NCBI GenBank assembly: GCA_963711565.1
Contig: CAVQEQ010000003.1
Location: forward strand, 1,120,001 to 1,184,000
Direction of reading: 5' to 3'
DNA: 64,000 nt
Source: an uncultured delta proteobacterium
GTDB lineage: Bacteria > Desulfobacterota > Binatia > Binatales > Binataceae
Part shown: positions 1,770 to 33,381 of the stretch, piece by piece
Numbering within the stretch: position 1 is the stretch's first letter
Layout of the letters: the number at the start of each line of letters is the position of its first letter
Notes under the pieces: model-generated
What the model saw: the letters and a program-made list of their open reading frames with translations, nothing else
Databases searched by the model: none
What the model was told of the DNA's origin: nothing
Position numbers and translations under genes: made by a program

Positions 1770-1840
1770 CAGCGGCTGCTTGTTTGGCAGAAGCGGCGAG
1801 CATAACTGTAAGAATTCAACCAGGAGGCTAGTCCCCAATC

Positions 1841-2119
1841 ATGGCAGTACGCGTCAGAGTTCCAACCCCACTTCGCAGATTCACCGCGGGCGTCGATGAA
1901 GTCCCGGCCGACGGCGCGTCGATCAAGGCGGTTATCGAAGACCTCGAACGGCGCCATCCGGGGATGCGCGAGCGGCTGCTCGATGAGAAAGGCGACATCC
2001 GCCGCTTCGTCAACATTTATCTGAACGGCGACGACATCCGCTTCCTCGACGCGATCAACTCCAAGGTAAAGGATGGCGACGACATCTCAATCGTTCCCGC
2101 GATTGCCGGCGGACGCTGA
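1841..2119 (+). CDS. MoaD/ThiS/CysO-family ubiquitin-like sulfur carrier
   Basis: VRVPTPLR N-terminus, FVNIYLNGDDIRF, C-terminal IVPAIAGG-R; SD GGAGG. Confidence 0.93.
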   Translation: MAVRVRVPTPLRRFTAGVDEVPADGASIKAVIEDLERRHPGMRERLLDEKGDIRRFVNIYLNGDDIRFLDAINSKVKDGDDISIVPAIAGGR

Positions 2120-2141
2120 CGCCTACGCGCGCGAGCGCGTC

Positions 2142-3134
2142 GTGCCGTTAGATGAGATCGTTCCGGCCGGGCGCGCTAACAGCGTGCTCGATCTGGTCGG
2201 CAATACTCCGTTGTTGGAGATCAAGCGGCTGACCGGCGGTTTGATGCCAGCGGGCGTGCGGATTTTCGCCAAGCTCGAGGGCTTCAACCCCGGCGGCTCG
2301 GTCAAGGATCGGCCGGCCAAGAAAATGCTCGAGGTGGGAATCGCCGCGGGCAAACTGAAACCGGGCAAGGTGATCCTCGACTCGACCTCCGGCAACACCG
2401 GGATCGCGTTGGCGATGCTTGGTGCGACGCTCGGCTATCCGGTCGAGCTGGTGATGCCGTCGAACGTGAGCCGCGAGCGCAAGAAGATCGTCGAAGCTTA
2501 CGGCGCGAAGATTCATTTCTCGGATCCGATGGAAGGCTCCGACGGCGCGATCGTCATGTGCCGCAAGATGATCGAGCAGAATCCGGCGCGCTACTTCAAG
2601 CCCGACCAGTACAACAACGAGGCCAACGCGCTGGCGCATTTCGAGACCACCGGCCCCGAAATCTGGCGTCAGACGCGCGGCCAAGTGACGCATTTCGCGG
2701 CCGCGATCGGCACCGGCGGCACCGTGATGGGCACCGGCAGATTTCTTAAATCGAAGAACCGCGCGATCAGAGTGATCGCAGTCGAGCCCGACGACGCGAT
2801 GCACGGGCTCGAGGGCCTCAAGCACATGGCGAGCTCGATTGTGCCGGGCATCTATCACGAAAAAGAGCTCGACGAGAAAATCCAGGTCGGCACCGAAGAG
2901 GCGTATGAGATGGTGTACGCGCTCGGGCAGACCGAGGGCATCCTGGTCGGCCAATCGTCGGGCGCTGCGATGATCGCGGCTCTCAAACTGGCGCGTACGA
3001 TTCGCGAAGGCACGATAGTCACCGTGTTCGCCGACTTCGGTGACAAATACCTCTCGACGAATTTGTGGATCGGATGGCAGGAATGGCGTCCCGAGCGCCT
3101 GCAACAAGTTATCGCCAAGTGGAAAAACAAATAA
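2142..3134 (+). CDS. cysM: Cysteine synthase B / O-phosphoserine sulfhydrylase (CysM-like)
   Basis: VGNTPL, NPGGSVKDR, TSGNTG, GTGGT, GQSSGA; start (GTG 2142) uncertain. Confidence 0.88.
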   Translation: MPLDEIVPAGRANSVLDLVGNTPLLEIKRLTGGLMPAGVRIFAKLEGFNPGGSVKDRPAKKMLEVGIAAGKLKPGKVILDSTSGNTGIALAMLGATLGYPVELVMPSNVSRERKKIVEAYGAKIHFSDPMEGSDGAIVMCRKMIEQNPARYFKPDQYNNEANALAHFETTGPEIWRQTRGQVTHFAAAIGTGGTVMGTGRFLKSKNRAIRVIAVEPDDAMHGLEGLKHMASSIVPGIYHEKELDEKIQVGTEEAYEMVYALGQTEGILVGQSSGAAMIAALKLARTIREGTIVTVFADFGDKYLSTNLWIGWQEWRPERLQQVIAKWKNK

Positions 3135-3139
3135 CGCAA

Positions 3140-3385
3140 ATGGAACGTATCCACGAACGCTACTACCTGAGCTATCCGCGCACGCTGATTAAGGAACCGA
3201 TCCTTTATCAGTTGGTGAAGAAGTTCGATCTCGTTTTCAATATCCGCGGCGCTAGCGTGTCGGAAGAGATGGGCCTGGTTGCCGTCGAGTTCGAAGGCAC
3301 CAACGATCAGATCGAACGCGCGCTGACGTGGCTGCGCAGCACCGGCGTCACCGTCGAGCCAATAGAAAAAAACGTGATCGAGTAG
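3140..3385 (+). CDS. Stand-alone NIL-domain protein
   Basis: 81 aa, EPILYQLVKKFDLVFNIRGASV...GVTVEPIE pattern typical of NIL domains. Confidence 0.82.
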   Translation: MERIHERYYLSYPRTLIKEPILYQLVKKFDLVFNIRGASVSEEMGLVAVEFEGTNDQIERALTWLRSTGVTVEPIEKNVIE

Positions 3386-3402
3386 GTCTGCGCGAGCGCG
3401 CG

Positions 3403-3975
3403 ATGACCCTAACTGACGCGCAAATCGATCGCTACAGCCGCCAGATAATCGTGCCGCATGTCGGCGGCCGCGGCCAGGAACGATTGCTCGCCGCGCGGAT
3501 ACTGCTCGCGGGCGATGCGCGCGATATCGAAGCGCCGCTTGCTTATCTGGTCGGCGCAGGAGTTGGATCGATCAGCGTCAAAGCCGCTGTAAGCATCGAA
3601 AAAATCGGCGCAATGCGCGAACTGAATCCCGACGTGATCGTAACGGATGAACTAAAAGCGCCGATCGACCTAGCGCTACTGATCGTCGGAAGTGAGGCCA
3701 CTCGAATAGTTGCGAAAGAGATCGCGAACGATCGCGGTGTGCGATCATTTGTGATAGCGCGACTCGACGCACCGGGAACAATCGCGATCATACCCGACAC
3801 GCACGGCCCGCAAATCGTCGAGGCACAGTTCGGCACGCGCTCCGAAGCCGCGGACTTTATCGCGATGCTCGCTACCGTCGAGGCATTCAAGCTGATCGCC
3901 GGCTACGCGGAAAATCCATCGCTCACTACAATCGAGTTCGACGGCTACGCGACCAGGGTCCGCGTTCATCCGTGA
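3403..3975 (+). CDS. Degenerate ThiF/MoeB-like protein
   Basis: LTDAQIDRYSRQII..GQERL and AYLVGAGVG match the MoeB N-terminus; no GxGxxG, DxxDN or CxxC. Confidence 0.75.
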   Translation: MTLTDAQIDRYSRQIIVPHVGGRGQERLLAARILLAGDARDIEAPLAYLVGAGVGSISVKAAVSIEKIGAMRELNPDVIVTDELKAPIDLALLIVGSEATRIVAKEIANDRGVRSFVIARLDAPGTIAIIPDTHGPQIVEAQFGTRSEAADFIAMLATVEAFKLIAGYAENPSLTTIEFDGYATRVRVHP

Positions 3976-4658
3976 TGTACAAACTCTGGATGTTCGATTT
4001 CGACAACACGATCGCGCGGCTCGAGCCCGAGGTCGATTGGGCTGGCGGACGAAAGATCCTCGAGCCATACCTGCGCTCGATAGGCGCGCCCGACGAATTG
4101 TTCACCCGAATCCCGCGCGGCAATCTCCCGCTCTATGACGCCTATCGCACACTCACCCTTCACGACTCCGACCAGCCGAATGTAACCGAAGTGCTCCAAC
4201 ATGCTTCGGCTATAATTGAGAAAATCGAATTGGCGGGAGTTGATCGCGCGCAACCGCTTGAAGGAGCAACCGAAATACTCGCAGCCCTGAAGGCGAGCGG
4301 CGCGGCAATCGCGATCGTCACATCCAACTCCTCGAAAACAGTTCAGCGATGGTTCGACCGACATGGCGGCGCATCAGTTGACGCGATCGTCGGACGCGAC
4401 ACATTGCTCGGACTCAAGCCGGCACCCGACATGGTGATTCGCGCACTCGAAACATATTCTGTCGATCGATCGGAGGCCGCATTCGTCGGCGACAGCGACG
4501 CCGACATCCGCGCCGCGCAAAGTTGCGGCGTGCGATTTTACGGTATCGCACCCACCGACACCGTGCGCGATCGATTGCTCGCGGCAGGCGCCACAGAAAT
4601 TTTCGCTTCGCCGGCCGCGCTCGCGATTCATCTGAACTTGTCCGCTCCGTCATCCTGA
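3975..4658 (+). CDS. HAD-family hydrolase (phosphoglycolate phosphatase-like)
   Basis: FDFDNT (motif I), VTSN, KPAP, VGDSDAD. Confidence 0.9.
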   Translation: MYKLWMFDFDNTIARLEPEVDWAGGRKILEPYLRSIGAPDELFTRIPRGNLPLYDAYRTLTLHDSDQPNVTEVLQHASAIIEKIELAGVDRAQPLEGATEILAALKASGAAIAIVTSNSSKTVQRWFDRHGGASVDAIVGRDTLLGLKPAPDMVIRALETYSVDRSEAAFVGDSDADIRAAQSCGVRFYGIAPTDTVRDRLLAAGATEIFASPAALAIHLNLSAPSS

Positions 4659-4743
4659 CGAAGCGAGCAACGCGAGCGGCAGGAAGGATCTCGGACAGCG
4701 CCGCGTTAAGCGCCGCCCGTACCGGTTTTGACATCGCGAAGCG
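4645..4743 (+). repeat. REP-like element, family B (GTCATCCTGAC...GAAGGA-CTCGGACAGC), copy 1
   Basis: Near-identical to 20106-20203 over the first ~55 bp and alignable over ~95 bp; supplies the HAD stop codon. Confidence 0.85.
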
Positions 4744-4832
4744 ATCCTTGCCGACTTGTTTCCTTCCATAAGATTAAGTAACTTGTGGAGTTCAGTAAGT
4801 AATCTATTCTTAAGGAGCATCAGTTTTAGCCG

Positions 4833-5375
4833 ATGGATCAAGGGTTTACCTTGTGGTTTACAGGCCTGTCCGGGGCCGGAAAATCAACGCTTGCGAATCT
4901 GGCCGCCGCTGAACTGCGCAAACGCGCGCATTGCGTCGAAATCCTCGACGGCGACGAAGTCCGCACCAATCTTTCCAAGGGCCTCGGGTTTTCCAAGGAG
5001 GATCGCGACATCAACATCCGGCGGATCGGCTACGTGTGCCATCTGCTGGCGCGCAACGGAGTCATCGCGATCTCGGCGGCGATTTCGCCCTACCGCGACG
5101 TGCGTGACGAAGTGCGGCGCAATCACGATCGCTTCTTCGAGGTGTACGTCCGCTGCACCATCGACAAGCTGGTCGAGCGCGACGTGAAGGGACTCTACAA
5201 AAAGGCGCTGGCCGGCGAGATCAAATCTTTCACCGGCGTGTCGGACCCCTACGAAGAACCGCTGAAACCCGAACTGATCGTCGATAGCAGCATCGAAACC
5301 GTCGATCAGAGCCTGGGCAAGTTGCTTGGCCGCCTCGAGGAGCTGAACTACATCAGCAAGGGAGCACGGCGATGA
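4833..5375 (+). CDS. cysC: Adenylyl-sulfate kinase
   Basis: [34 protein letters not shown]. Confidence 0.97.
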
Positions 5376-6547
5376 GCGTGCGCGACGACGCGATCTCGGC
5401 GCACGGCGGCGGCGAGCTGGTCGATCTGAAAGCGCCGGCGTCCGAACGCGGTGCGCTGGCCGCGCACGCGGCGAAGCTCGCGAGCGTCACGCTCAACGCG
5501 CGCGACATCGCCGACCTCGAGATGCTCGCGACCGGGGCGTTCTCGCCGCTGACCGGCTTCATGGGCGAGGCGGATTACACGCGCTCGCGCGACGCGATGC
5601 GGCTTGCGTCGGGCGTGCCGTGGTCGATTCCGATCACGCTCGGCGTCGATGAAGCGACTGCGAAATCTTTGAAGACCGGAACCGAGATCGCGCTCACGAC
5701 CGAAGATGGCAAGCGGCTGGCGATTCTCAAGCTCGCGGAAATCTACAAAGTCGATCGCAAGAACGAAGCGCAGAACGTGTTCGGCACCTCAGAGGACGCG
5801 CATCCGGGAGCGAAGAACGTCACCTCGATGCCGCCGTATTGCCTCGCGGGCAAGGTCACGTTGATCGAGGAGATACCGGGGCGCACGTTCCTGGAATTTC
5901 CGCGCGAGCCGCGGCAGACGCGCGCGGCGTTTCGCGAGCGTGGCTGGAAAAAGATCGTCGCCTTCCAGACTCGCAACCCGACTCATCGCGCGCACGAGTA
6001 TATCCAGAAAGCAGCGCTCGAAATCTGCGACGGCCTGATGATTCATCCGCTGGTCGGCGAGACCAAGGGCGACGACGTGCCCGCCGCCGTCCGGATGGAA
6101 ACCTACAAGGTGCTCCTTGACGCGTACTATCCGAAGGACCGCGCGATGATCGGCGTGTTCCCGGCGCATATGCGCTATGGCGGACCGCGCGAGGCGATTT
6201 TGCACGCGATCGCGCGGCGCAATTACGGATGCACGCACTTCATCGTGGGGCGCGATCACGCCGGCGTCGGCAATTACTACGGCAGCTACGACGCGCAGAA
6301 AATCTTCGAGCGCTTCAAGCCGGATGAACTCGGCATCACCCCGCTGACCTTCGAGAACACTTTTTACTGCAGGCGATGCAACTCGATGGCGTCGTTCAAG
6401 ACCTGCCCGCACTCGGATGCGGATCGCGTAATACTGTCAGGCACGAAAGTCCGCGAGATGCTGCGCGCCGGCGAAGCACCGCCGCCCGAATTCACGCGCC
6501 CCGAGCTCGCGGCGATTTTGGTGAAATCAATGCGCGCCGCGAAGTAG
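5372..6547 (+). CDS. sat: Sulfate adenylyltransferase
   Basis: [43 protein letters not shown]; ATGA overlap with cysC. Confidence 0.97.
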
Positions 6548-6552
6548 CTTTT

Positions 6553-6626
6553 AATACTGAGGTGCAGGGGTTACCCCTGCCCAAGGAAGTTTGAAACCCA
6601 CGGCGGGTTTCATTTCGATTAAGTTC
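6553..6626 (+). repeat. Double-hairpin repeat family A, full copy
   Basis: GCAGGGG-TTA-CCCCTGC-CCAAGGAAG..TGAAACCC-ACGGC-GGGTTTCA between convergent genes. Confidence 0.9.
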
Positions 6627-7497
6627 CTCTCTTGAGCGCGCGCTCCTTCGCGGCGCGCTTCGCGCGATTGGGGTCACCGGACCAGGTCCAGGCGTGCTCG
6701 GTGCGGCTGACGCCTACCAGCACGCCCAAGAACGCCGACGGGTGGATGAACAATTCGGCGAGACCGGCCTCGTCTTTGTGATGCGCCGCGAAACGCGCGC
6801 CGCGCGCTTGCAGGCGATTCTCGAGAGCACCGACGTCGTCGGTCTCGACGAAAAACATGTACAGCGAGTCGCCGCGGCGTTGATGGAACCGGCCCATCGC
6901 GAGGTTCGCGTCGGTGATTTGCGCGATCTCGATTCTGTCCAGGCGCGCGGGAGGATCGAACAGAGTGAGCGTGCCGGTGTAGCCGAACTGCTTGCTCTCA
7001 ATCGGGCTGAACTTCGCCACGTCGAGGACGAAGATGCGCGCGTAGCGGTCGGATGCCGCTTTCCAATCGCCGACGACGTTAGTGACTTCGTAGGCCCACT
7101 TGATCGCGCCGGCGGGTGCGCGCTCGTGATGCTGCGAGATGACGGTGCGCATCCCAAACGTCGCGCCGGGGTCGAGATACAGTTGTCCCGCGGATTGCTC
7201 GAAGCTGACGCCGCACTTCGCGAGATGATGCGCGGCAGCGTCGGGATCGTCCACCGAGAATCCCGCGCCGAATAATCCGCTGCCCCATTTCGAGACGAAA
7301 TCCTGGACCGCGCCGGTGCCGTCCGGTTCCAGAATCTCGATGAGGCTCGACCCGGCTTGCATCGTGGATCGCTTGGCGACGAGCGGCGTCGCCTTGTCGC
7401 GACGCACAAGTTCCCCGCCGAAGACTTCCGCGACGACCTTCTCGGCCGCACCGCTGTCGGCGACCGCTATCTGAACTCTGTCAACGCGTTTCAGCAT
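6619..7497 (-). CDS. Two-domain VOC/glyoxalase-family protein
   Basis: VDRVQIAVAD, IEILEP, IEIAQ; duplicated methylmalonyl-CoA epimerase-like modules. Confidence 0.82.
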   Translation of the reverse strand: MLKRVDRVQIAVADSGAAEKVVAEVFGGELVRRDKATPLVAKRSTMQAGSSLIEILEPDGTGAVQDFVSKWGSGLFGAGFSVDDPDAAAHHLAKCGVSFEQSAGQLYLDPGATFGMRTVISQHHERAPAGAIKWAYEVTNVVGDWKAASDRYARIFVLDVAKFSPIESKQFGYTGTLTLFDPPARLDRIEIAQITDANLAMGRFHQRRGDSLYMFFVETDDVGALENRLQARGARFAAHHKDEAGLAELFIHPSAFLGVLVGVSRTEHAWTWSGDPNRAKRAAKERALKRGT

Positions 7498-20203: not shown

Positions 20204-20266
20204 CGAACCACACGATGACTGATGCTCATTTTTGTCGCTCCGTCTGCTAAGCTCGTCCACCGAAAA

Positions 20267-23200
20267 GTGCATCCGCTCGAAACCTATCTTCGCGATTTGT
20301 CTGAGGCGCACGCCGCCGGCGTTCCTGAGACGACCCATTATCCCGCACTGCGGGCGCTGCTCAACGAAATCGGCGGCACGCTCAAGCCGAAAGTGCGATG
20401 CGTCATAAATCCAAAGAGCAAGGGTGCAGGAATTCCCGACGGCGGGCTCTATACCCCTGATCAATTGCCAAAGGGCGGCGACCCGGAACCGCCGCTCGGG
20501 ACGCTGCCTGCGCGCGGAGCGATCGAGGCGAAATCAACCACGGACGATGCGTTCGCCGTCGCAAAGTCGGAACAGGTCGAAAAATACCTCAAGCTTTACC
20601 GCCAAGTGCTGGTCACCAACCTGCGCGATTTTGTCCTGATCGCATTGGATGGTGACGGTGGCCCGCGAATTCTTGAAAGCTACAAGCTCGCCGTCGATGA
20701 GGAATCGTTCTGGAGTGCGGCTGCGCATCCGCAGGCGATGGCGAAGCGAGAGGGAGATCGTTTCGCCGATTTCATCCGGCGCGTAATGCTCCATCCGGCG
20801 CCACTGGCTTCTCCCAAAAACGTCGCATGGTTTCTTGCGTCGTATGCGCGCGAGGCGCGCTGGCGAATCGAGAACCATCCGATACCTGCGCTGGCTGCAT
20901 TGCGCGAGGCGCTCGAACAAGGGCTTGGGCTCAAGTTCGAAGGCCCGGAAGGCGAACATTTCTTCCGCTCCACGCTGGTCCAGACGCTCTTCTATGGCGC
21001 GTTTGCGGCGTGGGTTTTGTGGAGCAAGGAGCATCCGTTTTCCGACCTCAGGGTAAAGTTCAACTGGAAGCTCGCCGGCGACCATCTTCATGTCCCGATT
21101 GTCGGGGTGCTGTTTCATCAACTGATCGAACCGTCGCAACTGAAGGCGCTTGGAATCGACGAAGTCCTGGATTGGGCCGGCGACGTGCTCAACCGTGTGG
21201 ATCGGGGGGCGTTCTTCAAAGCTTTCGAGGAGGAGCATGCGGTCCAGTATTTCTACGAACCATTTCTGGAAGCGTATGATCCTGCGCTGCGCAAACAGCT
21301 CGGAGTCTGGTACACGCCGCCTGAGATCGTGACCTACATGGTTGAGCGAGTCGATTCCGTTTTGCGCTCTGAACTCCATATCGCGGACGGGCTCGCAGAT
21401 CCGCGCGTGGTCGTACTCGATCCGTGCTGTGGAACGGGCAGCTACGTGGTCGAAGTGTTGCGGCGGATAGAAAAAACGCTGATCGAGAAGGGCAAGACTG
21501 CGCTGACGGCGAACGCGGTCAAAAAAGCTTCGATAGAACGCGTCTTCGGTTTCGAAATCATGCCCGCGCCGTACGTGATCTCGCATCTGCAAGTCGGAAT
21601 TGCTTTGCAGCAAATCGGCGCACCTCTATCTGAAGATGCGAACGAACGCGCGGCGGTCTATCTGACGAACTCGCTCACTGGCTGGGAGCCGCCGAAAGGT
21701 CCGAAGCAACACATAGTCGCGTTTCCGCAGTTGGAGCAGGAGCGCGACGCCGCCGAAGAGGTGAAACGGACCAAGCCGATCATCGTGATTCTGGGCAACC
21801 CGCCTTACAACGCTTTTGCGGGCGTCAGTCCAGCCGAAGAGATGGGTTTGGTCGAGCCGTACAAGGAAGGACTCGTCGCGGAGTGGAAGATCAAGAAGTT
21901 CAATCTCGACGATCTATACGTCCGATTCTTTCGGATCGCGGAGAGAAGAATCACAGAGGGCAAAACAGGCACTGGCATCGTCGCGTTCATTTCTAACTTT
22001 TCCTACATCGAGGATGCTTCGTTCGTAGTGATGCGGCAGCGGTTGATCTCGGAGTTCGACCGAATCTGGATCGACTGTATGAACGGCGACAGCCGCGAGA
22101 CCGGCAAATTGACTCCTGATGGAAAGCCCGATCCAAGCGTGTTCTCGACCGAATATAACCATGAGGGAATTCGAGTCGGCACGGCGGTAGCAGTGATGGC
22201 CCGCGCGGAATCGAACGCAAAGCGGGCAAGCGTCGGCTTCCGTGAATTTTGGGGCACGTCGAAGCGCCAGGACTTGATCGATTCATTGAACGCTAAACAT
22301 TTTGATGCACGATATGAACCCGCAAACCCCGAGAAGTCCAACCGCTATTCGTTCAGACCCTCAAAGTCGTCGAAGCAGTATTCGAGCTGGCCGAAAATCG
22401 TCGAGTTATGCGCGATGCCACCGGTAAATGGTCTAATGGAGAAGCGCGGAGGCGCGCTCATCAATATTGATCGAGCTAAGCTGGCAGAGCGCATGCACGC
22501 GTACTTCAATCCGAAGCTCGATTGGACCGAGTACTCGGCGCTCGGTTATGGCCTAGTCGAGGAGCAGGCGGGATTTGATCCGAAGACCGCGCGTCGGAAG
22601 GCTCTTGAAAGTGAGGTGTACGACGCGGAGCGGATTGTTCGCTACGCGATAAGACCATTCGACACAAGATGGTGCTATTACACTGCGGTGCCTCCGATTT
22701 GGAATCGGGCGAGGCCGCAGCTATGGGCTCAAAACCACAATGGGAACGAGTTCCTGATCACCCGCCCGGCGGGCGTTGCATCGCCCGAAGGAGTTCCGTT
22801 CCATTTCACGCGCTGCTTGGGTGACAATGATTTGCTCCGCGGCCATGCCTATTACACTCCGACGACATTGAAGGGACCGATATCCAGGAAAAACCTCAGT
22901 TCGCTCGGCAAATCATATTTAGAGAAAATCGAGCTCCCATCGCCAAAAGACGATCTTCTATTGTCGCACTCTCTAGCGGTCGGATACGCGCCGTCATATT
23001 TGTCGGAAAACGCTGACGGCATACGAGGAGACTGGCCGAGAATCCCACTGCCGGACTCCAAAGACGCACTCATCCGCTCCGCAGAACTCGGCCGTCAGAT
23101 CGCGGCCCTGCTCGACACTGAAAATTCGGTTGCGGGAGTTACGGCAGGTGCGATCCGTCCCGAACTGAAAGAAATCGCCGTTATCTGGAGCGACGGAGGC

Positions 23201-23668
23201 GGCTCTCTTGAGCCAGCGAAGGGACACCTGGCCTTGAGGGCGGGATGGGGTCATGCCAGCAAGGAAGGGGCCGTAATGCCAGGTAAGGGTCTCGCGAAGG
23301 TACGCGACTACAGGAAGTCCGAGCTAACTGCATTAGAGGAAGGCGCCAAGAAACTCGGCGTGTCGCCCATTGAACTGCTGACGCCGCTTGGCGTGCAGAC
23401 GATGGACATCCATTTGAACAACGTCGCGTACTGGAAGAACATCCCGGCGCGGGTCTGGGAATACACGATCGGCGGCTATCAGGTGATCAAAAAGTGGCTA
23501 AGCTACCGCGAGCGCGACCTGCTCGGCCGCGACTTGAGTACCGATGAGGTTGACGAGGTTACCGCGATGGCCCGGCGCATCGCGGCGATTGTATTGCTCG
23601 AGCCGTCGCTCGACGCGAATTACGCAAGCATAAAGTCCGCCACCTACGATTGGCCTTCAGGCAGCTAA
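20267..23668 (+). CDS. Single-chain restriction-modification enzyme (Type IIG/ISP-like: PD-(D/E)xK nuclease + N6-adenine MTase + target-recognition domain)
   Basis: PDGG..IEAK, GVWYTPPEIV, LDPCCGTG, GNPPY, C-terminal IGGYQVIKKWL; no helicase motifs; start 20222 or 20267. Confidence 0.88.
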   Translation: MHPLETYLRDLSEAHAAGVPETTHYPALRALLNEIGGTLKPKVRCVINPKSKGAGIPDGGLYTPDQLPKGGDPEPPLGTLPARGAIEAKSTTDDAFAVAKSEQVEKYLKLYRQVLVTNLRDFVLIALDGDGGPRILESYKLAVDEESFWSAAAHPQAMAKREGDRFADFIRRVMLHPAPLASPKNVAWFLASYAREARWRIENHPIPALAALREALEQGLGLKFEGPEGEHFFRSTLVQTLFYGAFAAWVLWSKEHPFSDLRVKFNWKLAGDHLHVPIVGVLFHQLIEPSQLKALGIDEVLDWAGDVLNRVDRGAFFKAFEEEHAVQYFYEPFLEAYDPALRKQLGVWYTPPEIVTYMVERVDSVLRSELHIADGLADPRVVVLDPCCGTGSYVVEVLRRIEKTLIEKGKTALTANAVKKASIERVFGFEIMPAPYVISHLQVGIALQQIGAPLSEDANERAAVYLTNSLTGWEPPKGPKQHIVAFPQLEQERDAAEEVKRTKPIIVILGNPPYNAFAGVSPAEEMGLVEPYKEGLVAEWKIKKFNLDDLYVRFFRIAERRITEGKTGTGIVAFISNFSYIEDASFVVMRQRLISEFDRIWIDCMNGDSRETGKLTPDGKPDPSVFSTEYNHEGIRVGTAVAVMARAESNAKRASVGFREFWGTSKRQDLIDSLNAKHFDARYEPANPEKSNRYSFRPSKSSKQYSSWPKIVELCAMPPVNGLMEKRGGALINIDRAKLAERMHAYFNPKLDWTEYSALGYGLVEEQAGFDPKTARRKALESEVYDAERIVRYAIRPFDTRWCYYTAVPPIWNRARPQLWAQNHNGNEFLITRPAGVASPEGVPFHFTRCLGDNDLLRGHAYYTPTTLKGPISRKNLSSLGKSYLEKIELPSPKDDLLLSHSLAVGYAPSYLSENADGIRGDWPRIPLPDSKDALIRSAELGRQIAALLDTENSVAGVTAGAIRPELKEIAVIWSDGGGSLEPAKGHLALRAGWGHASKEGAVMPGKGLAKVRDYRKSELTALEEGAKKLGVSPIELLTPLGVQTMDIHLNNVAYWKNIPARVWEYTIGGYQVIKKWLSYRERDLLGRDLSTDEVDEVTAMARRIAAIVLLEPSLDANYASIKSATYDWPSGS

Positions 23669-28131: not shown

Positions 28132-28731
28132 ATGAGGCAAGGAAATTTCAGATTCGGATTGATCGCAATCGGACTCGCGGTGATGCTCGCGATGCCGGCC
28201 GGTCCGCTCTCGCAATACGCCGCGGCCCAATCCGCGCAGCCGGTCGGCGCCCCGGGCGGAACGCAGATCCCGCAGCCGCCGGACAATAGCGTCAACTGGC
28301 CCGGCGCGGGCTACGGTGCCGGCGCGCTGCTCTGCAACGTGCTCTACATCCCGGCCAAGCTGACCTACGCGATCCTCGGTGGAATCGTCGGCGGCGGAAC
28401 CTACCTGGTGACCGCCGGCAATCAGCAGGCGGCCAACACGGTCTGGCGCAGCTCGCTCGGCGGCGATTACGTGGTAACGCCGCAGATGCTCGCGGGGACG
28501 CAGCCGATCAATTTCAGCGGGCCGACGAGCACCCCGCCCAACGTCCCGGCGCCCTCGACGAGCTCATCGTCGAGCATGACGACGACAACCGCGAGCTCCG
28601 GTGGCATCGCGCCGATCACGCCGCTGCCGGCGGCGGGCACGTCCGCAAATAGTTCGTCGCCAACCGGCGGCCAGCCGCTCGATCACGGCGCTGGCCCCGC
28701 AGGCGGACCCTCGGGCGCGAACATCGAGTAG
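28132..28731 (+). CDS. Secreted/membrane hypothetical protein with Ser/Thr/Pro-rich tail
   Basis: SD AGGAGG, signal peptide, hydrophobic core. Confidence 0.75.
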   Translation: MRQGNFRFGLIAIGLAVMLAMPAGPLSQYAAAQSAQPVGAPGGTQIPQPPDNSVNWPGAGYGAGALLCNVLYIPAKLTYAILGGIVGGGTYLVTAGNQQAANTVWRSSLGGDYVVTPQMLAGTQPINFSGPTSTPPNVPAPSTSSSSSMTTTTASSGGIAPITPLPAAGTSANSSSPTGGQPLDHGAGPAGGPSGANIE

Positions 28732-28755
28732 TCGCAGCTAAACGGCGAGTCGTGC

Positions 28756-29106
28756 ATGAAGAAAATCCGTTTCTTTTGGAAATCGACATGCACGACTTGC
28801 CGCGACGCAAGAAACTTCCTGCGCAATGACGTGGGCGCCGCCCTCGACGAACGCGACTACGCGAAGATCCCTCTGCGCGAATCCGAACTGAAGGATCTGT
28901 TCGCCGGCCGCGACCCGCGCGATTACCTAAACCCGCGCAGTCCGGCTTTCAAGGCGATGGGTCTGGAGGGCAAATCGCTGACACCCGAACAGGCGTTGGC
29001 CCTGATGGCAAAGGAACCGAATCTAATCAAGCGCCCAATCGTAGTCGTCGGCAAAGAAATGATCGCCGGCTTCGACCGCGAACGGCTGCGCTCTGCACTG
29101 AAGTAG
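28756..29106 (+). CDS. ArsC/Spx/MgsR-family protein
   Basis: CTTCR, PNLIKRP, GFD. Confidence 0.9.
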   Translation: MKKIRFFWKSTCTTCRDARNFLRNDVGAALDERDYAKIPLRESELKDLFAGRDPRDYLNPRSPAFKAMGLEGKSLTPEQALALMAKEPNLIKRPIVVVGKEMIAGFDRERLRSALK

Positions 29107-29239
29107 CCACCGCTGAGAGCAGACAGTATGTACTGCCGTCGTTCGGAGAGGTTGACTCGACTGAGCACTACAGGGCCGGACTCACACCCGATCTCGGCTT
29201 GCGCTAGAATAGTCACGACCTTAGAGGGCAAAAACTGCG

Positions 29240-31054
29240 ATGGACAACACGAGTTCGGAACAGCGGATTGGCGACTATCGGTTGCTGTCAAAGATTGGCG
29301 AGGGCAAATCAGGCGTGGTGCACCTAGCAACGCCCGCAGTCACCAAGCCGTTCGCGGTTCCCGGACAGCCGGTCGCTCTCAAGATCTATCGTCCTGAAAT
29401 TCTACACGAACCGAATCAAGTGGACCGGATCGAGAATGAGGCGCGGGTCGGGCAGGAGATCGCGCACCCCAACGTCGCGAGAATCTACGAGCACGAGATA
29501 CTAAGAAATGCCACTTCCAAGGAGATCGACCAGGCATTCTTAGTGATGGAGTACGTGGACGGAATAACACTTCACAAGTGGCTCTCGATGTTTCATCGGA
29601 TTTCCGACCGCTTGTTGCTGAGGATATTTCGCCAACTGGTCGATGGCACCAACGCGCTACACGAAAAAGGCGTGATCCATCGGGACATCAAGCCCACGAA
29701 CATCCTCGTCTCTTCGACTTTCCAGGCGAAAATTACCGACTTCGGCGTGGTTAAGGTTAAAGACACGCCGCCTGGCGGGAGCACTCCGGAAGACAAGTTC
29801 CTCGGCACAATACGCAACGCGTCACCCGAACTTCTTTTTGGAGAAAAGTTCGATCATCGCGCCGACCTCTATTCACTTGGAACTGTATTGTTCGCGCTGC
29901 TTCATGGCGTTGAGATTTTCGCCGCAGAGAATCAGTTCGCTCGACTCATTGAACTCAAGAAACATCAAGATCCGGAGTTCGATACGGCATTCGCCGGCAA
30001 GCCGATCCGCAGTAGGCTTGCGGCTCTCGCGAAGAAGTTATTGAGTCGCGACCCAATGGAGCGGCCCGAATCGGCCCAAGCCGTCCAGCAGGAAATCGCG
30101 GAGATTGAAAAACTTATGCCCACGGGTGAGGACGAGCCCGAGCCCCTCCATGGTTACATCGCCACGGCATTGACCGGATTGGGTCCAGACGTACGCGAGG
30201 CCATAGTTTTCGCTTCACATTCCATCGTGGCAGAGTGTAAGGAACACGAGCTCTACGTATATCAGCCTCGACTAGCGTCCGATCCCGTCTCTCATTCAGA
30301 CGTGAGCGCCGAGGAGGTTTATCGATTGGATCGGGGTCGAGTGGTCGCGGCCGATGTCCTTTTCGTGTTGGCCAATCAGCCTAGTCTCGGGGTCGGACAG
30401 GAGATTGAGATCGCTTCAAGCTATGGCAAGCCGACGATATTGATAGCGCGTGAAGGAGTCACGGTTTCCCGGATGACCAAGGGTAGCTATGCGAACTTGA
30501 TCGGTGAGATCACTTACGCCTCGCCCGAGGATCTTCACAAAAAACTCGGAGAGCTGCTGCGGACCAACATCGGAAGGCTGCGTTCACTCAGGGCGGGTCT
30601 CAATGTCCGCGCCGTGACGCCACTTGCCGATCGATTTTCAGAGGCTCGGAAGGCCGCAGGCTATTCGCTGGCAGAGGCTGCGATGAAGTGTGGAATTTCT
30701 CAGGCACTCTTGCGCGCGATCGAGAACGGGCAGAATGATAATTTCGGAATCGTGATCATCAACAAGCTGTGCGTTCTATATGGCATTTCTGTAGACGAGC
30801 TCCTGAAGACCGAGCCGGTCAGGGCGAAGCCTACAGGACCTGATCCGAACGTGCGCCGGTTGGAGAGCGTTGCACGACGCTTAAGCTGGCCGACCACGGA
30901 TCTTCTTGAGCTTCGCGATGAATATTCCGCAGAGCTAGCGGCTTCGGGTGCTCACACAGACATCTCTGAGGAAGAGTGGGAACAACGGCACGCTGCATCA
31001 CAGAAGCAGAAGCTCAAAGAAGCAACTCATCAAAAGAAATTCGAGGGTTTTTGA
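29240..31054 (+). CDS. Ser/Thr kinase - NDT/DNPH1-like N-glycosidase - XRE HTH fusion protein
   Basis: GEGKSG, VALK, HRDIKPTN, DFG, SPE, DLYSLG; then GYIA..D...AD...PSLGVGQE..GKP..SRM; then Cro/C1-type HTH ending YGISVDELL. Confidence 0.88.
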   Translation: MDNTSSEQRIGDYRLLSKIGEGKSGVVHLATPAVTKPFAVPGQPVALKIYRPEILHEPNQVDRIENEARVGQEIAHPNVARIYEHEILRNATSKEIDQAFLVMEYVDGITLHKWLSMFHRISDRLLLRIFRQLVDGTNALHEKGVIHRDIKPTNILVSSTFQAKITDFGVVKVKDTPPGGSTPEDKFLGTIRNASPELLFGEKFDHRADLYSLGTVLFALLHGVEIFAAENQFARLIELKKHQDPEFDTAFAGKPIRSRLAALAKKLLSRDPMERPESAQAVQQEIAEIEKLMPTGEDEPEPLHGYIATALTGLGPDVREAIVFASHSIVAECKEHELYVYQPRLASDPVSHSDVSAEEVYRLDRGRVVAADVLFVLANQPSLGVGQEIEIASSYGKPTILIAREGVTVSRMTKGSYANLIGEITYASPEDLHKKLGELLRTNIGRLRSLRAGLNVRAVTPLADRFSEARKAAGYSLAEAAMKCGISQALLRAIENGQNDNFGIVIINKLCVLYGISVDELLKTEPVRAKPTGPDPNVRRLESVARRLSWPTTDLLELRDEYSAELAASGAHTDISEEEWEQRHAASQKQKLKEATHQKKFEGF

Positions 31055-31056
31055 TC

Positions 31057-31878
31057 GTGGACGCAACTCACCGTCGCTTCGAGACGCTATTCGACAGCAT
31101 CCGCCATCGTCGAGGCAGTTGGCGAGCCACGGTTGCTGAGAAACTGCGAATGGTTAGACTTGCTGTCCAAGAGGCTGGATGCGGAGCGGTCCCTACAGAT
31201 CTTACGCGTCTCGCTCGGCACCTTCGCGTTGTGAAAATTACCGAAAGATCGCTCACGATGCGCGGGCGCATCCTTCGCTCCGAGCTGGGTTACGAGATCC
31301 AGATAAACGAGGAACTACCGGATACATCGAAACGCGACGTTCTCGCGCACGAGCTTTCTCATCTGGTTGTCGAGGATAGAAGTATTGCGACTTCGAACAG
31401 GCTCAATCGCGAGCGCAGTGATTTCGCTTCCTCCTACGGCTCCGTTGAGAAACTATGCGACGAATGCGCGTTCGAGATACTGTTGCCACTTGGCTGGCTG
31501 CGCGATAGGTTGCGCGGCACTCGACCGTCCGCCGAGGTCTTGCGTAACATCGCAGAGGCTGCGGGATGCAGTGTCGAATACGCAGCCAAGCGGATATGGA
31601 CCGAGGCACTGTGGGATTGCAGATTTTCGGTTTGGCAGAGCGCAGGGGATAGAACATTTGCGTTGCGGTCCTACCCGCCCGAGCCGGCTGAGACGCTCGC
31701 GTCATGGGCTCTTGAGTTAGCTGCTAAATCCGCCCCGTCCTCGCTGTCCCCGCATGGCAATCAGAGCCTTCGTGAGATCTCTGCGCGATTCGAATGTATG
31801 GGCGTTCGACGCACCGTGGCTTGTCTTGTGGAAGAATCAACGGTTTTGGTCGTTGACCTAGGCAAATCAAAGCCTTAA
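31057..31878 (+). CDS. ImmA/IrrE-family (M78) Zn metallopeptidase
   Basis: PTDL..LA, IQIN, AHELSH (HExxH), E..CD..A..ILLP, IAEAAGCS; GTG 2 bp after the upstream stop. Confidence 0.88.
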   Translation: MDATHRRFETLFDSIRHRRGSWRATVAEKLRMVRLAVQEAGCGAVPTDLTRLARHLRVVKITERSLTMRGRILRSELGYEIQINEELPDTSKRDVLAHELSHLVVEDRSIATSNRLNRERSDFASSYGSVEKLCDECAFEILLPLGWLRDRLRGTRPSAEVLRNIAEAAGCSVEYAAKRIWTEALWDCRFSVWQSAGDRTFALRSYPPEPAETLASWALELAAKSAPSSLSPHGNQSLREISARFECMGVRRTVACLVEESTVLVVDLGKSKP

Positions 31879-31962
31879 CCCGGAGCGTGCTTCAGCATCG
31901 TGCGCGCGCGTGCAATAGCCTGTGCGCGATGCTATTTCCTGAGTCAGGCGAGGTGTTTCTTC

Positions 31963-33381
31963 ATGCCATTCTCTGACGATCTCTTTTTCGCTCCCGCTCA
32001 TAAACTTGCTGCGATGTTGCGCGCGCGCGACGTTTCCTCGGTGGAAATGGTCGACGCGTTTATCGAACGGATCGAGTCGGTGAATCGCGGCCTCAATGCC
32101 GTCGTCACTCTGGTCGAGGATCGCGCGGGGCGCGAGGCTGAGGAGTCCGACCGGCGTCTATCGGGCAAAGGCGAGATTCGCCCGCTCGAAGGCCTGCCGA
32201 TTACGATCAAGGATTCGATCATCACCGAGGGCGTGCGCTCGACCTGGGGCATGAAGCATTTCGAGCATCACGTCGCCACGCAGGACGCGCCGACGGTGGC
32301 GCGGCTGCGTGCGGCCGGTGCGATCGTAATCGGAAAAACCAACACTCCCGAAATGACGATGGACTACGACTGCGACAATCCCGTCTTCGGACAGACCAAC
32401 AATCCGTGGAATCATGAACGCGTGCCCGGCGGCTCGAGCGGCGGCGAGGCGGCCGCGCTGGCGGTCGGGATGTCGCCGCTGGGAATGGGCTCGGACTATC
32501 GCGGATCGATCCGCGTGCCCGCGCATTTCTGCGGTATCGTCGGGCTCAAGCCGACGTGGGGAACGATTCCCGGCAACGGGCATATGGCGCCGAGCATTGC
32601 GGCGCCTCCGCCAATCGCGCACATGGCGACAATCGGTCCGATGGCGCGCTACGTCGATGATCTCACGCTCGCCTACAACATCGTGAAGGGGCAGCATCAC
32701 AGCGCGCCGTATACGGTGCCGACCGCAGACGCGCATCCGGAGAACGTGGATCTGAAGAAAGTTCGATGCGCGATCTTCACCGACGCGTGCAATGTGCCGG
32801 TCACGTCCGACATTCGCGCCGCGATTGAGCGCGCCGGCCGCGAGCTGCAGAAGATGGGTATCGTCGTCGAAGCCGTGAAGCCGCCGGTCGATGACGGCGA
32901 GCGTTTGTGGTGGGCGTACCAGAGCGCTGACGGCGGTCAGCTGGCGCTGGAAGAATTGGGCGAGGCCGTGAAACTTTCGCGCGAGCGGCTGCGGAGCGTG
33001 ATGGTCGCGGGCGAGGCCAAGTCGGCGGCCGAGTTCTTCAAGATCGCGATCGAACGCGACGCGTGGCGCGTGCAGTTGGCGGAGTTCATGGAACGCTACC
33101 CGATCATTCTCGGCCCGACGTTCTGCGTCACGGCGTTCAAACACGGTGCGACCGAAGTCGAAATCAACGGCAACAAATATCCGCACTTTCTCGCCGGCTG
33201 GCCGGTGGCGTGGGGAAATTGCGCGGGACTGCCGGGCGTCGTCGTGCCGTGCGGAAAAGATCGCGAGGGGCTGCCGATCGGATTGCAGATAAGCGGGCGC
33301 GCATTCGGCGAGGAAACCGTGCTCGCAGTCGCCAAGGCAGCGGAGACGGCAATGGGCGGGTATCAGAAACCTCCGCTGTGA
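31963..33381 (+). CDS. Amidase signature-family enzyme
   Basis: IKD, GKTN, PGGSSGG, GSDYRGSIRVPA, GLPIGLQ. Confidence 0.93.
   Translation: MPFSDDLFFAPAHKLAAMLRARDVSSVEMVDAFIERIESVNRGLNAVVTLVEDRAGREAEESDRRLSGKGEIRPLEGLPITIKDSIITEGVRSTWGMKHFEHHVATQDAPTVARLRAAGAIVIGKTNTPEMTMDYDCDNPVFGQTNNPWNHERVPGGSSGGEAAALAVGMSPLGMGSDYRGSIRVPAHFCGIVGLKPTWGTIPGNGHMAPSIAAPPPIAHMATIGPMARYVDDLTLAYNIVKGQHHSAPYTVPTADAHPENVDLKKVRCAIFTDACNVPVTSDIRAAIERAGRELQKMGIVVEAVKPPVDDGERLWWAYQSADGGQLALEELGEAVKLSRERLRSVMVAGEAKSAAEFFKIAIERDAWRVQLAEFMERYPIILGPTFCVTAFKHGATEVEINGNKYPHFLAGWPVAWGNCAGLPGVVVPCGKDREGLPIGLQISGRAFGEETVLAVAKAAETAMGGYQKPPL

Follow-up and report, generated by a model that had tools for sequence, protein, structure and literature searches.

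A two-gene cassette pairing a kinase/NDT-like/HTH fusion protein with an IrrE/CapP-type peptidase in a Binataceae genome: a candidate protease-gated toxin or defence switch

We analysed a two-gene cassette in a 64,000-nt stretch of DNA from an uncultured member of the Binataceae (assembly GCA_963711565.1, contig CAVQEQ010000003.1, positions 1,120,001 to 1,184,000 of the forward strand). This whole stretch is hereafter called the window, and coordinates refer to it unless a locus is named. Gene 1 (29240..31054, + strand) encodes a 604-aa fusion of a Ser/Thr kinase, a nucleoside deoxyribosyltransferase (NDT)-like domain, an XRE-type helix-turn-helix (HTH) domain, and a C-terminal tail. Gene 2 (31057..31878, + strand) encodes a 273-aa M78 metallopeptidase of the IrrE/PprI/CapP type. 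The two genes are separated by 2 nt, because the TGA stop codon of gene 1 (31052-31054) ends at 31054 and the GTG start codon of gene 2 begins at 31057. The parts of the cassette are known, their combination appears to be undescribed, and a role as a toxin or defence system is likely. We read the cassette, with a probability of about 0.5, as a self-contained mobile protease-gated toxin/defence switch in which the repressor module is fused to its own effector. The novel point would be the joining of a cleavable repressor module to two enzymes in a small system of two genes and 2.8 kb.

Domain structure of the fusion protein and the peptidase

The conservation figures for the fusion protein rest on an alignment of 29 full-length members (A1). 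The kinase domain (aa 13-285; 29276..30094, + strand) matched Pfam Pkinase (PF00069) with an E-value of 1.8e-42 and a score of 146 bits against a cut-off of 31.7. It has the full Hanks catalytic set, namely the VAIK Lys, the αC Glu, and the HRD, DFG, and APE-like motifs. K48, E67, H147-R148-D149, K151, N154, D167, G169, T182, P196-E197, D209, and R275 were invariant in all 29 members.

The middle domain (aa 302-450; 30143..30589, + strand) has a DNPH1/MilB-like NDT fold. Pfam Nuc_deoxyrib_tr matched aa 327-405 with an E-value of 1.5e-4 and 22.4 bits, which is under the cut-off of 28.8, and three other family members (P0022, P0027, and P0035) carry a precomputed PF05014 match. An AlphaFold2 model of aa 295-604, built on a 33-row alignment, had a predicted local distance difference test score (pLDDT) of 88.5 and a predicted template modelling score of 0.71. 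The modelled domain aligned to DNPH1 (4kxl) with a VIA Z of 15.0 and a root mean square deviation (rmsd) of 2.2 Å over 130 of 136 residues. The Z values for DNPH1 bound to hydroxymethyldeoxyuridine monophosphate (hmdUMP), MilB, and NDTs were 14.9, 14.0, and 12.8-14.4, respectively. The top Foldseek matches of the model were MilB, DNPH1, and NDT, with E-values from 1e-5 (MilB) to 5e-4. The weak Pfam match was upheld because the structure comparison agrees with it.

A phmmer comparison with rat Rcl aligned QPSLGVGQEIEIA of the fusion to QPSLGVGYELGRA, the upstream YRLD to HEQD, and the downstream SRM to SAM, which places E388 opposite the Glu of Rcl GVGYE and D364 opposite the Rcl Asp. Y306, D364, S382, E388, and S410 were invariant in 29 of 29 members; we take the matching residues of Rcl/DNPH1 to be catalytic and phosphate-binding. 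Because these counterparts of the Rcl motifs are invariant, the NDT-like domain looks like an active nucleoside-monophosphate N-glycosidase. Mean identity to the window protein was highest in the NDT-like domain (59%), followed by the kinase (50%), the tail (45%), the HTH (34%), and the linkers (10-17%). The NDT-like domain is the best-kept part of the family, and the HTH is the least-kept domain.

The XRE-type HTH (aa 462-522; 30623..30805, + strand) matched Pfam HTH_31 and HTH_3 over aa 462-521 with E-values of 9e-9 and 3e-8, respectively. Model residues 165-230 aligned to the DNA-binding domain of ImmR (7t8i) with a Z of 12.6 and an rmsd of 1.6 Å over 65 of 65 residues (37% identity). Profile matches in the PDB were SinR (3.5e-11), DdrO 6jq1 (4e-8), 6rmq (4e-7), 7t5u (8e-7), and ImmR 7t8i (8e-6), among which 7t5u is presumably the N-terminal domain of CapH. 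Furthermore, the PADLOC capH model matched aa 461-544 of the fusion with an E-value of 2e-6.

The HTH is followed by a variable Pro/Ala/Ser-rich linker (aa 523-534; 30806..30841, + strand) with a family identity of 10-13%, in which the model pLDDT falls to 68. The three-helix C-terminal tail (aa 535-604; 30842..31051, + strand) is a predicted dimerisation/cleavage module with helices at aa 536-547, 552-569, and 577-603 (model residues 242-253, 258-275, and 283-309). L541, A567, W580, and R583 of the tail were invariant in all 29 members, and L558 and R559 were kept in 26 and 25 of the 29, respectively. In DdrO, a flexible linker joins the HTH to a dimerisation domain of three helices, and IrrE cuts the protein at L106/R107 (partial text of PMC6868357); the cut site of CapH is F82/R83, inside its dimerisation domain (partial text of PMC13228613). 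The model gives the C-terminus of the fusion the same layout as DdrO, with HTH, linker, and three-helix C-terminal domain in that order. By analogy with the two known sites, L558-R559 is a candidate scissile bond.

In regards to gene 2, its product is identical to a 273-aa entry of the public protein collection (P0039; 100% identity and coverage). Pfam Peptidase_M78 matched aa 71-180 with an E-value of 3.8e-11 and 43.3 bits against a cut-off of 22, and PADLOC capP matched the product with an E-value of 6.9e-16. The HExxH zinc motif (H98, E99, and H102; 31348..31362, + strand) was invariant in 12 aligned peptidases. E131 was nearly invariant among them and is likely the third zinc ligand; the equivalent set in CapP is H97/E98/H101/E128 (PMC13228613, partial text). 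The sequence of the loop between HExxH and E131 contains no Cys, so the CapP-type cysteine switch, reported in the same partial text, is probably absent from the window peptidase.

A structure model of the peptidase had a pLDDT of 80.1, with low confidence at aa 109-125. Its VIA matches were ssDNA (single-stranded DNA)-bound PprI (8sln; Z 17.5, 216 residues), PprI (8slm; 17.2), IrrE (3dte; 17.0), and CapP (7t5t; 16.5), and the next unrelated chain had a Z of 4.7. These alignments cover model residues 19-273, and Foldseek gave E-values of 1.8e-9 to 1.3e-7. The GAF/PAS-like C-terminal domain (aa 186-270; 31612..31866, + strand), with model strands at 189-267, lies within the full-length alignments to IrrE, PprI, and CapP, and matched PAS, LOV, and phytochrome domains at Z 3-4. 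The modelled gene 2 product has the full three-domain IrrE/CapP fold, with catalytic, central HTH-like, and C-terminal GAF-like domains. It follows from the full-length structural alignment that the C-terminal extension of the peptidase is the HTH-like middle plus the GAF-like domain of this family. These two domains form an ssDNA groove in PprI and CapP.

These results agree with a preliminary description of the locus, which had proposed two genes 2 nt apart between an ArsC and an amidase gene, a fusion of an intact Hanks kinase, an NDT-fold domain, and an XRE HTH, and an HExxH M78 peptidase with a C-terminal extension. The gene layout was borne out by the coordinates of the open reading frames (ORFs) and by Pfam, and the kinase by its Pfam match and its invariant catalytic residues. 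The fold of the middle domain, on which that description had staked its proposal, is that of the NDTs, since VIA and Foldseek both put DNPH1, MilB, and NDT first. The Pfam match likewise confirmed the HTH, whose nearest kin are ImmR, DdrO, CapH, and SinR, and the invariant motif confirmed the peptidase, whose extension is now assigned to HTH-like and GAF-like domains. The peptidase fold and the HTH matches indicate a kinship with CapH/CapP, IrrE/DdrO, and ImmA/ImmR stronger than had been seen.

Distribution, gene pairing, and insertion site

A search with the C-terminal half of the fusion found 38 proteins among 5.8 billion protein clusters; they were 38-96% identical and mostly about 600 aa long. 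Word-indexed searches and pattern scans together place about 40-50 homologues in the fusion family. The kinase was present in every homologue with a complete sequence. The source labels of the homologues span phyla, including Pirellulales, Betaproteobacteria, and Cyanobacteriota.

Pattern scans fetched 11 loci; metagenomes supplied 9 of them, and the 185,579 species genomes scanned supplied 2. Two of these (L019 and L021) end too early for the pairing count, which was made on the nine foreign loci with downstream DNA. A peptidase homologue lay directly 3' of the fusion gene, a few codons apart, in 9 of 9 loci (tblastn E-values of 4e-52 to 9e-9). No other neighbour was common to the seven annotated foreign loci, which carry riboflavin, glycerol, and glycan genes, a USP-CBS protein gene, RHS genes (L025), and a methylase with Tsp45I (L020). 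Because these seven loci share no other neighbour, any effector must lie within the gene pair. No integrase, excisionase, or phage genes were found beside the cassette. The cassette is thus autonomous and travels alone. In L020, an N6_N4 DNA methylase gene and a Tsp45I-family restriction enzyme gene lie directly downstream of the cassette (2896-4923, + strand), and this pair is the only clear defence neighbour among the seven annotated loci.

Several forms of the family were set aside. A kinase-less NDT-HTH short form was represented by 16 matches of 170-543 aa, mostly from contigs of 1-5 kb, and five of these sequences (P0044-P0048) were inspected. The last 30 residues of P0045 are those of the 608-aa ORF of L024, which makes P0045 an internal-start gene call, and P0046, P0047, and P0048 start inside the NDT-like domain. 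The short form was rejected. Two 130-aa XRE proteins in genomes G128 and G239 (L046 1513-1905, + strand; L043 1382-1774, - strand) matched the HTH and part of the tail with profile E-values of 1e-12 to 1e-14, had no adjoining M78 gene, and were likewise rejected; each lies within about 140 bp of an ORF of about 420 aa. In L017, from a Pirellulales metagenome-assembled genome, the fusion gene shifts frame between the kinase and the NDT-like part at about 6001-6007. The tblastn pieces (5078-6007 and 6001-6870) are in different frames, as in a frameshifted pseudogene or an assembly error.

The cassette is accessory in its lineage. With a 6.1-kb DNA query, both flanks matched most of 46 same-genus genomes at 70-87% identity, and query positions 1822-4580, which correspond to the cassette, were left uncovered by all matches listed for these 46 genomes (77 weaker matches were outside the list). 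This count includes the unpublished genomes G018 and G023, without which it becomes 0 of 44. A search with the fusion protein in 24 genomes of the genus and 16 class relatives gave kinase-domain matches only, which stop by residue 317 and have 26-36% identity. Among 400 further genomes of the phylum, none gave a full match to the C-terminal profile.

In composition, the cassette region is foreign. The GC content across 29000-32000 was 0.51-0.58 vs 0.62-0.65 on either side, and the GC content at third codon positions (GC3) was 0.62 for gene 1 and 0.58 for gene 2 vs 0.72-0.85 for 11 neighbouring genes. Both cassette genes use CTA (11.6-14.6 per mille) and ATA (10.9-11.6 per mille), codons that mostly stand at 0-3 per mille in the neighbours. 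Some neighbours are also rich in these codons, namely the ArsC gene (CTA 17.1 per mille), a glyoxalase gene (CTA 8.3), and a LysR gene (CTA 6.0 and ATA 9.1). The preliminary description had seen an A/T-richer pair with CTA and ATA codons, had treated core status in the lineage as a ground against its proposal, and had made the same of a missing peptidase partner. GC, GC3, and codon counts agree with the first point, and the pair is not core, with none among the listed matches in 46 genus genomes and 0 of 400 phylum genomes. The peptidase accompanies the fusion in all nine foreign loci with downstream DNA in addition to the window.

The accessory insert, which consists of the cassette and its own 133-bp leader (29107-29239), is 2.8 kb long (29107..31900) and lies between the ArsC stop codon and a hairpin upstream of the amidase gene. 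It contains the two genes and no further ones. The ArsC-family gene on its left (28756..29106, + strand; Pfam ArsC, E 7.7e-16) is kept in the genus, and the amidase gene on its right starts with an ATG at 31963 (Pfam Amidase, E 3.9e-102). The hairpin CGCGCGTGCAATAGCCTGTGCGCG, followed by GATGCTATTTCCTGAG (31905..31928, + strand), is host sequence 5' of the amidase ATG and outside the cassette. It was kept in all eight sister genomes of a junction alignment of the ArsC-amidase site (A5) and possibly helps to regulate the amidase gene.

The same site varies among the sisters. It is 20-30 bp long in G009 and G050, 100-150 bp with a GGCAGGGGTAACCCCTGC palindrome in others, and holds 0.8-2.3 kb of different cargo in further ones. 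The palindrome was present at the empty sites L033, L035-L037, L039, and L040, with GTGAAACCC...GGGTTTCAC repeats nearby, and may together with these be a REP (repetitive extragenic palindromic)-like element or a terminator. The cargo lies on the - strand in G051 (L031 3318-4523), G001 (L029 3372-4006), and G022 (L028 3321-3883). In G051 it encodes a 402-aa SLFN_AlbA_2 protein. In G001 it includes a RelE/ParE toxin gene, which scored 76.2 bits with TIGR02683 (cut-off 62.85) and adjoins a 136-aa ORF that matched neither Pfam nor NCBIfam. In G022 it includes a 112-aa homologue of the 136-aa ORF and a short ORF that is only partly toxin-like, both without a family match. The ArsC-amidase site is thus a small hotspot for accessory, conflict-type genes. 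The low GC3, the absence from relatives, the labels from multiple phyla, and the variable cargo at the site indicate that the cassette is horizontally acquired, rare, and mobile.

A promoter-like site, CTCACA-18-TAGAAT, lies in the leader about 30 nt 5' of the gene 1 ATG (29181..29210, + strand). The consensus scan gave 2 promoter-like sites vs 1.1 ± 1.2 in shuffled sequences, a difference that alone is not significant. Four of the 10 family loci have a -10-like box 25-55 nt 5' of the fusion gene start (TAGAAT in the window, at 29200-29210, and in L018 and L019; TAGATT in L026), which suggests that the cassette carries its own promoter.

In the wider window, a Type ISP/IIG-like restriction-modification ORF with N6_Mtase and Type_ISP_C domains (20222-23665, + strand; 1148 aa) sits 5.6 kb upstream of the cassette. 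Its GC3 of 0.67 is below that of its neighbours, and the stretch between it and the cassette contains housekeeping genes, rpoZ and a gene of the sigma-70 family among them.

Proposed mechanism and rival explanations

We propose that the resting fusion would form dimers by way of its tail, occupy its own promoter, and hold down its own level; with the repressor fused to its own effector, the resting level would be clamped. The trigger would be ssDNA produced when DNA is damaged or a phage replicates; once activated by it, the IrrE/CapP-like peptidase would cleave the tail, with L558-R559 as a possible site, in the manner of the hydrophobic-Arg sites of DdrO and CapH. The fusion would then no longer dimerise or bind DNA, the cassette would be derepressed, and the enzyme would be freed in rising amounts. 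The kinase would phosphorylate proteins, and the glycosidase would hydrolyse deoxynucleoside or nucleoside monophosphates (dNMPs/NMPs), perhaps modified ones, so that growth would be arrested or the phage starved. The preliminary description had let cleavage release the enzymes, and this step probably differs. Because DdrO and CapH are cut in their C-terminal dimerisation domains, a cut here would more likely take off the tail than part the enzymes from the HTH.

If the mechanism holds, a DNPH1-like glycosidase joined to a Ser/Thr kinase would be added to the known bacterial toxin and defence effectors, and the same ssDNA-sensing protease would be able to control an effector protein directly. 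The CapP/CapH, IrrE/DdrO, and ImmA/ImmR pairs are transcriptional switches placed before separate operons.

Several observations weigh against a protease-gated toxin/defence switch. Cleavage, autorepression, toxicity, and an anti-phage role are all steps that we infer. The fusion would keep its enzymes after a cut in the tail, so its harmlessness at rest needs an extra assumption, either a dose effect or inhibition within the uncut dimer. The candidate bond L558-R559 falls short of full conservation (25-26 of 29 members) and lies inside a predicted helix. The window leader has no inverted repeat (seed of 6), and imperfect 7-nt palindromes 5' of 10 family loci showed no excess over shuffle means; the window has 1 vs 2.3 in shuffled sequences, and the largest excess was in L025 (6 vs 2.6). 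Autorepression through the HTH, as previously proposed, is therefore left unsupported, the upstream regions being without enrichment of operator-like palindromes, and we regard this operator search as neutral, speaking neither for nor against autorepression.

The defence side of this reading meets similar points. PADLOC matched the fusion with mad6 (E 1.2e-57) and PD-T4-6 (E 9e-57), both spanning aa 3-305 only, and the NCBIfam scores were far under their cut-offs (antiphage_MADS6, 107.6 vs 460 bits; PglW, 58.6 vs 990 bits). The PADLOC matches are thus generic ones to a kinase domain. The NDT-like domain had no match to any PADLOC model. In five of the seven annotated foreign loci, the genes are metabolic, encode stress proteins, or are unassigned, and none is a defence gene. 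The proposed defence-island context is consequently thin, with a restriction-modification pair in one of the seven and RHS genes in another. The cassette was found neither on plasmids or phages by tblastn nor on viral contigs.

A sharper version of the same idea makes the fusion a single-polypeptide immune effector, in which the ssDNA-sensing protease would cut the DdrO-like tail and turn a DNA-tethered, autorepressing kinase/N-glycosidase into a free toxin. Nucleoside monophosphates would be destroyed by its DNPH1/MilB-like domain, possibly including the hydroxymethylated dCMP or dUMP (deoxycytidine or deoxyuridine monophosphate) that phages with modified DNA have to make. We consider this version unlikely. 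If true, the CapH/CapP logic would here for the first time gate an effector protein itself instead of an operon, and the result would be a nucleotide-level defence directed at phage-specific precursors.

The cassette may instead be a mobile DNA-damage stress module and not an anti-phage system; an IrrE/DdrO-like switch would induce the DNPH1-like enzyme, which would clear damaged or aberrant (deoxy)NMPs after DNA damage, and the kinase would provide a signalling output. Three points favour this explanation: IrrE/DdrO controls DNA-repair genes in Deinococcus (PMC6868357 and PMC13228613, partial texts), the nearest structures are of enzymes that act on modified NMPs (DNPH1 bound to hmdUMP and MilB bound to hydroxymethylcytidine monophosphate), and the foreign loci mostly have metabolic surroundings and not defence islands. 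A useful repair function is, however, unlikely to be so rare and patchy (0 of 46 genus genomes among the listed matches and 0 of 400 in the phylum) and would be unexpected at a hotspot where toxin-antitoxin and Schlafen-like cargo also occurs; moreover, the kinase has no obvious role in cleaning the nucleotide pool. We therefore hold this explanation to be somewhat improbable.

A selfish addiction cassette of the toxin-antitoxin kind without any defence role, in which the tail and peptidase restrain the toxin and loss of the cassette leads to post-segregational killing, seems quite improbable. It would suit the compact two-gene layout with its 2-nt gap, the sporadic distribution, and the RelE/ParE toxin gene at the same site in sisters, and COG2856/XRE pairs have been proposed as toxin-antitoxin-like. 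Addiction modules are nevertheless common on plasmids, where the cassette was not found, and the peptidase, with its complete ssDNA-sensing IrrE/CapP architecture, points to a switch set off by a signal and not to simple differential stability. The HTH and its dimerisation-type tail would also fit a one-component transcription factor acting in trans, with the NDT-like domain as nucleotide sensor, the kinase as accessory, and the peptidase for turnover, and NDT-, SLOG-, and TIR-like folds are able to act as nucleotide sensors. Against this, the invariant counterparts of the DNPH1/Rcl motifs and the intact kinase set indicate enzymes and not sensors, the HTH is the least-kept domain at 34% identity, and the host lineage, being without the cassette, offers no conserved regulon to control. 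Such a factor is very improbable.

Comparison with known systems

The combination of the fusion and the M78 peptidase matched no PADLOC system and no NCBIfam model at its cut-off. A literature search that did not extend to subscription journals gave no account of a kinase-NDT-HTH fusion partnered by an M78 peptidase. The view that the architecture is undescribed thus stands after literature, PADLOC, and NCBIfam searches.

The kinase shares its Hanks domain with Stk2, PD-T4-6, Mad6 of MADS, and PglW of BREX. To our knowledge, these systems include neither an NDT domain nor an HTH nor an M78 partner. CapK was considered as kin of the fusion kinase and rejected, as it is of the GHKL/anti-sigma type and not a Hanks kinase (partial text of PMC13373217). 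According to the same partial text, a VapC toxin-antitoxin system has taken over the CapK/CapS regulators; there the likeness to the cassette is one of concept, namely direct control of a toxin by a re-employed pair of regulators that senses DNA damage, whereas the proteins are unrelated and no peptidase is involved.

The NDT-like domain has the same fold as DNPH1/Rcl and MilB/BcmB (Z 14-15), and the QPSLGVGxE motif, the upstream Asp, and the downstream Ser align. It differs from them in having only about 20% identity and a Pfam score under the cut-off, and in its position between a kinase and an HTH. The NDT-like RcaT effectors of Retron-Sen2 and Retron-Eco1, whose toxicity depends on oligomeric state, resemble it as NDT-fold toxic effectors that are inactive until triggered and that dimerise through the NDT-like domain (10.64898/2026.10.13.758329, partial text). 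In contrast to retrons, the cassette has no reverse transcriptase or non-coding RNA, no Rfam match was found in 28700-32200, and the neighbours of the middle domain are DNPH1 and MilB.

ImmA/ImmR, the anti-repressor protease and repressor of ICEBs1 and prophages, likewise consists of an M78 protease with an XRE repressor, and the fusion HTH is nearest to ImmR. ImmA/ImmR controls mobile-element excision, whereas the cassette is without an integrase, excisionase, or phage genes. In structure, the peptidase comes closest to IrrE/PprI (Z 17.0-17.5) of the Deinococcus radiation response, and DdrO shares the substrate layout; it is cut at a Leu-Arg, and the fusion tail has a conserved Leu-Arg. DdrO, with 129 aa, is a stand-alone protein that represses a chromosomal regulon and belongs to the core of its genus, whereas the repressor module here is fused to enzymes and accessory.

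CapH/CapP pairs regulate CBASS, DISARM, Bub, and other immune operons. CapP, activated by ssDNA, cleaves CapH within its dimerisation domain (PMC13228613, partial text). In the available part of the CapH/CapP preprint of Lau et al. (2022), CapH-CapP fusions are the only fusions, and the words "kinase" and "toxin" have 0 occurrences. The cassette resembles this pair in its M78 peptidase with HExxH and Glu, a central HTH-like and a GAF-like domain (Z 16.5 to 7t5t), in a partner whose XRE HTH precedes a helical C-terminal module, and in the adjoining of the two genes. It differs in that the CapH-like module makes up the last third of a 604-aa protein with two enzymes, the HTH module being fused to the kinase and the NDT-like domain in 29 of 29 aligned full-length members, and in that there is no separate regulated operon, no neighbour being kept in seven loci. 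Because a small separate repressor of a separate operon is not present, we set the cassette outside the CapH/CapP-IrrE/DdrO kind of regulator and file it as a system that works like CapH/CapP and IrrE/DdrO, yet is not a member of that kind.

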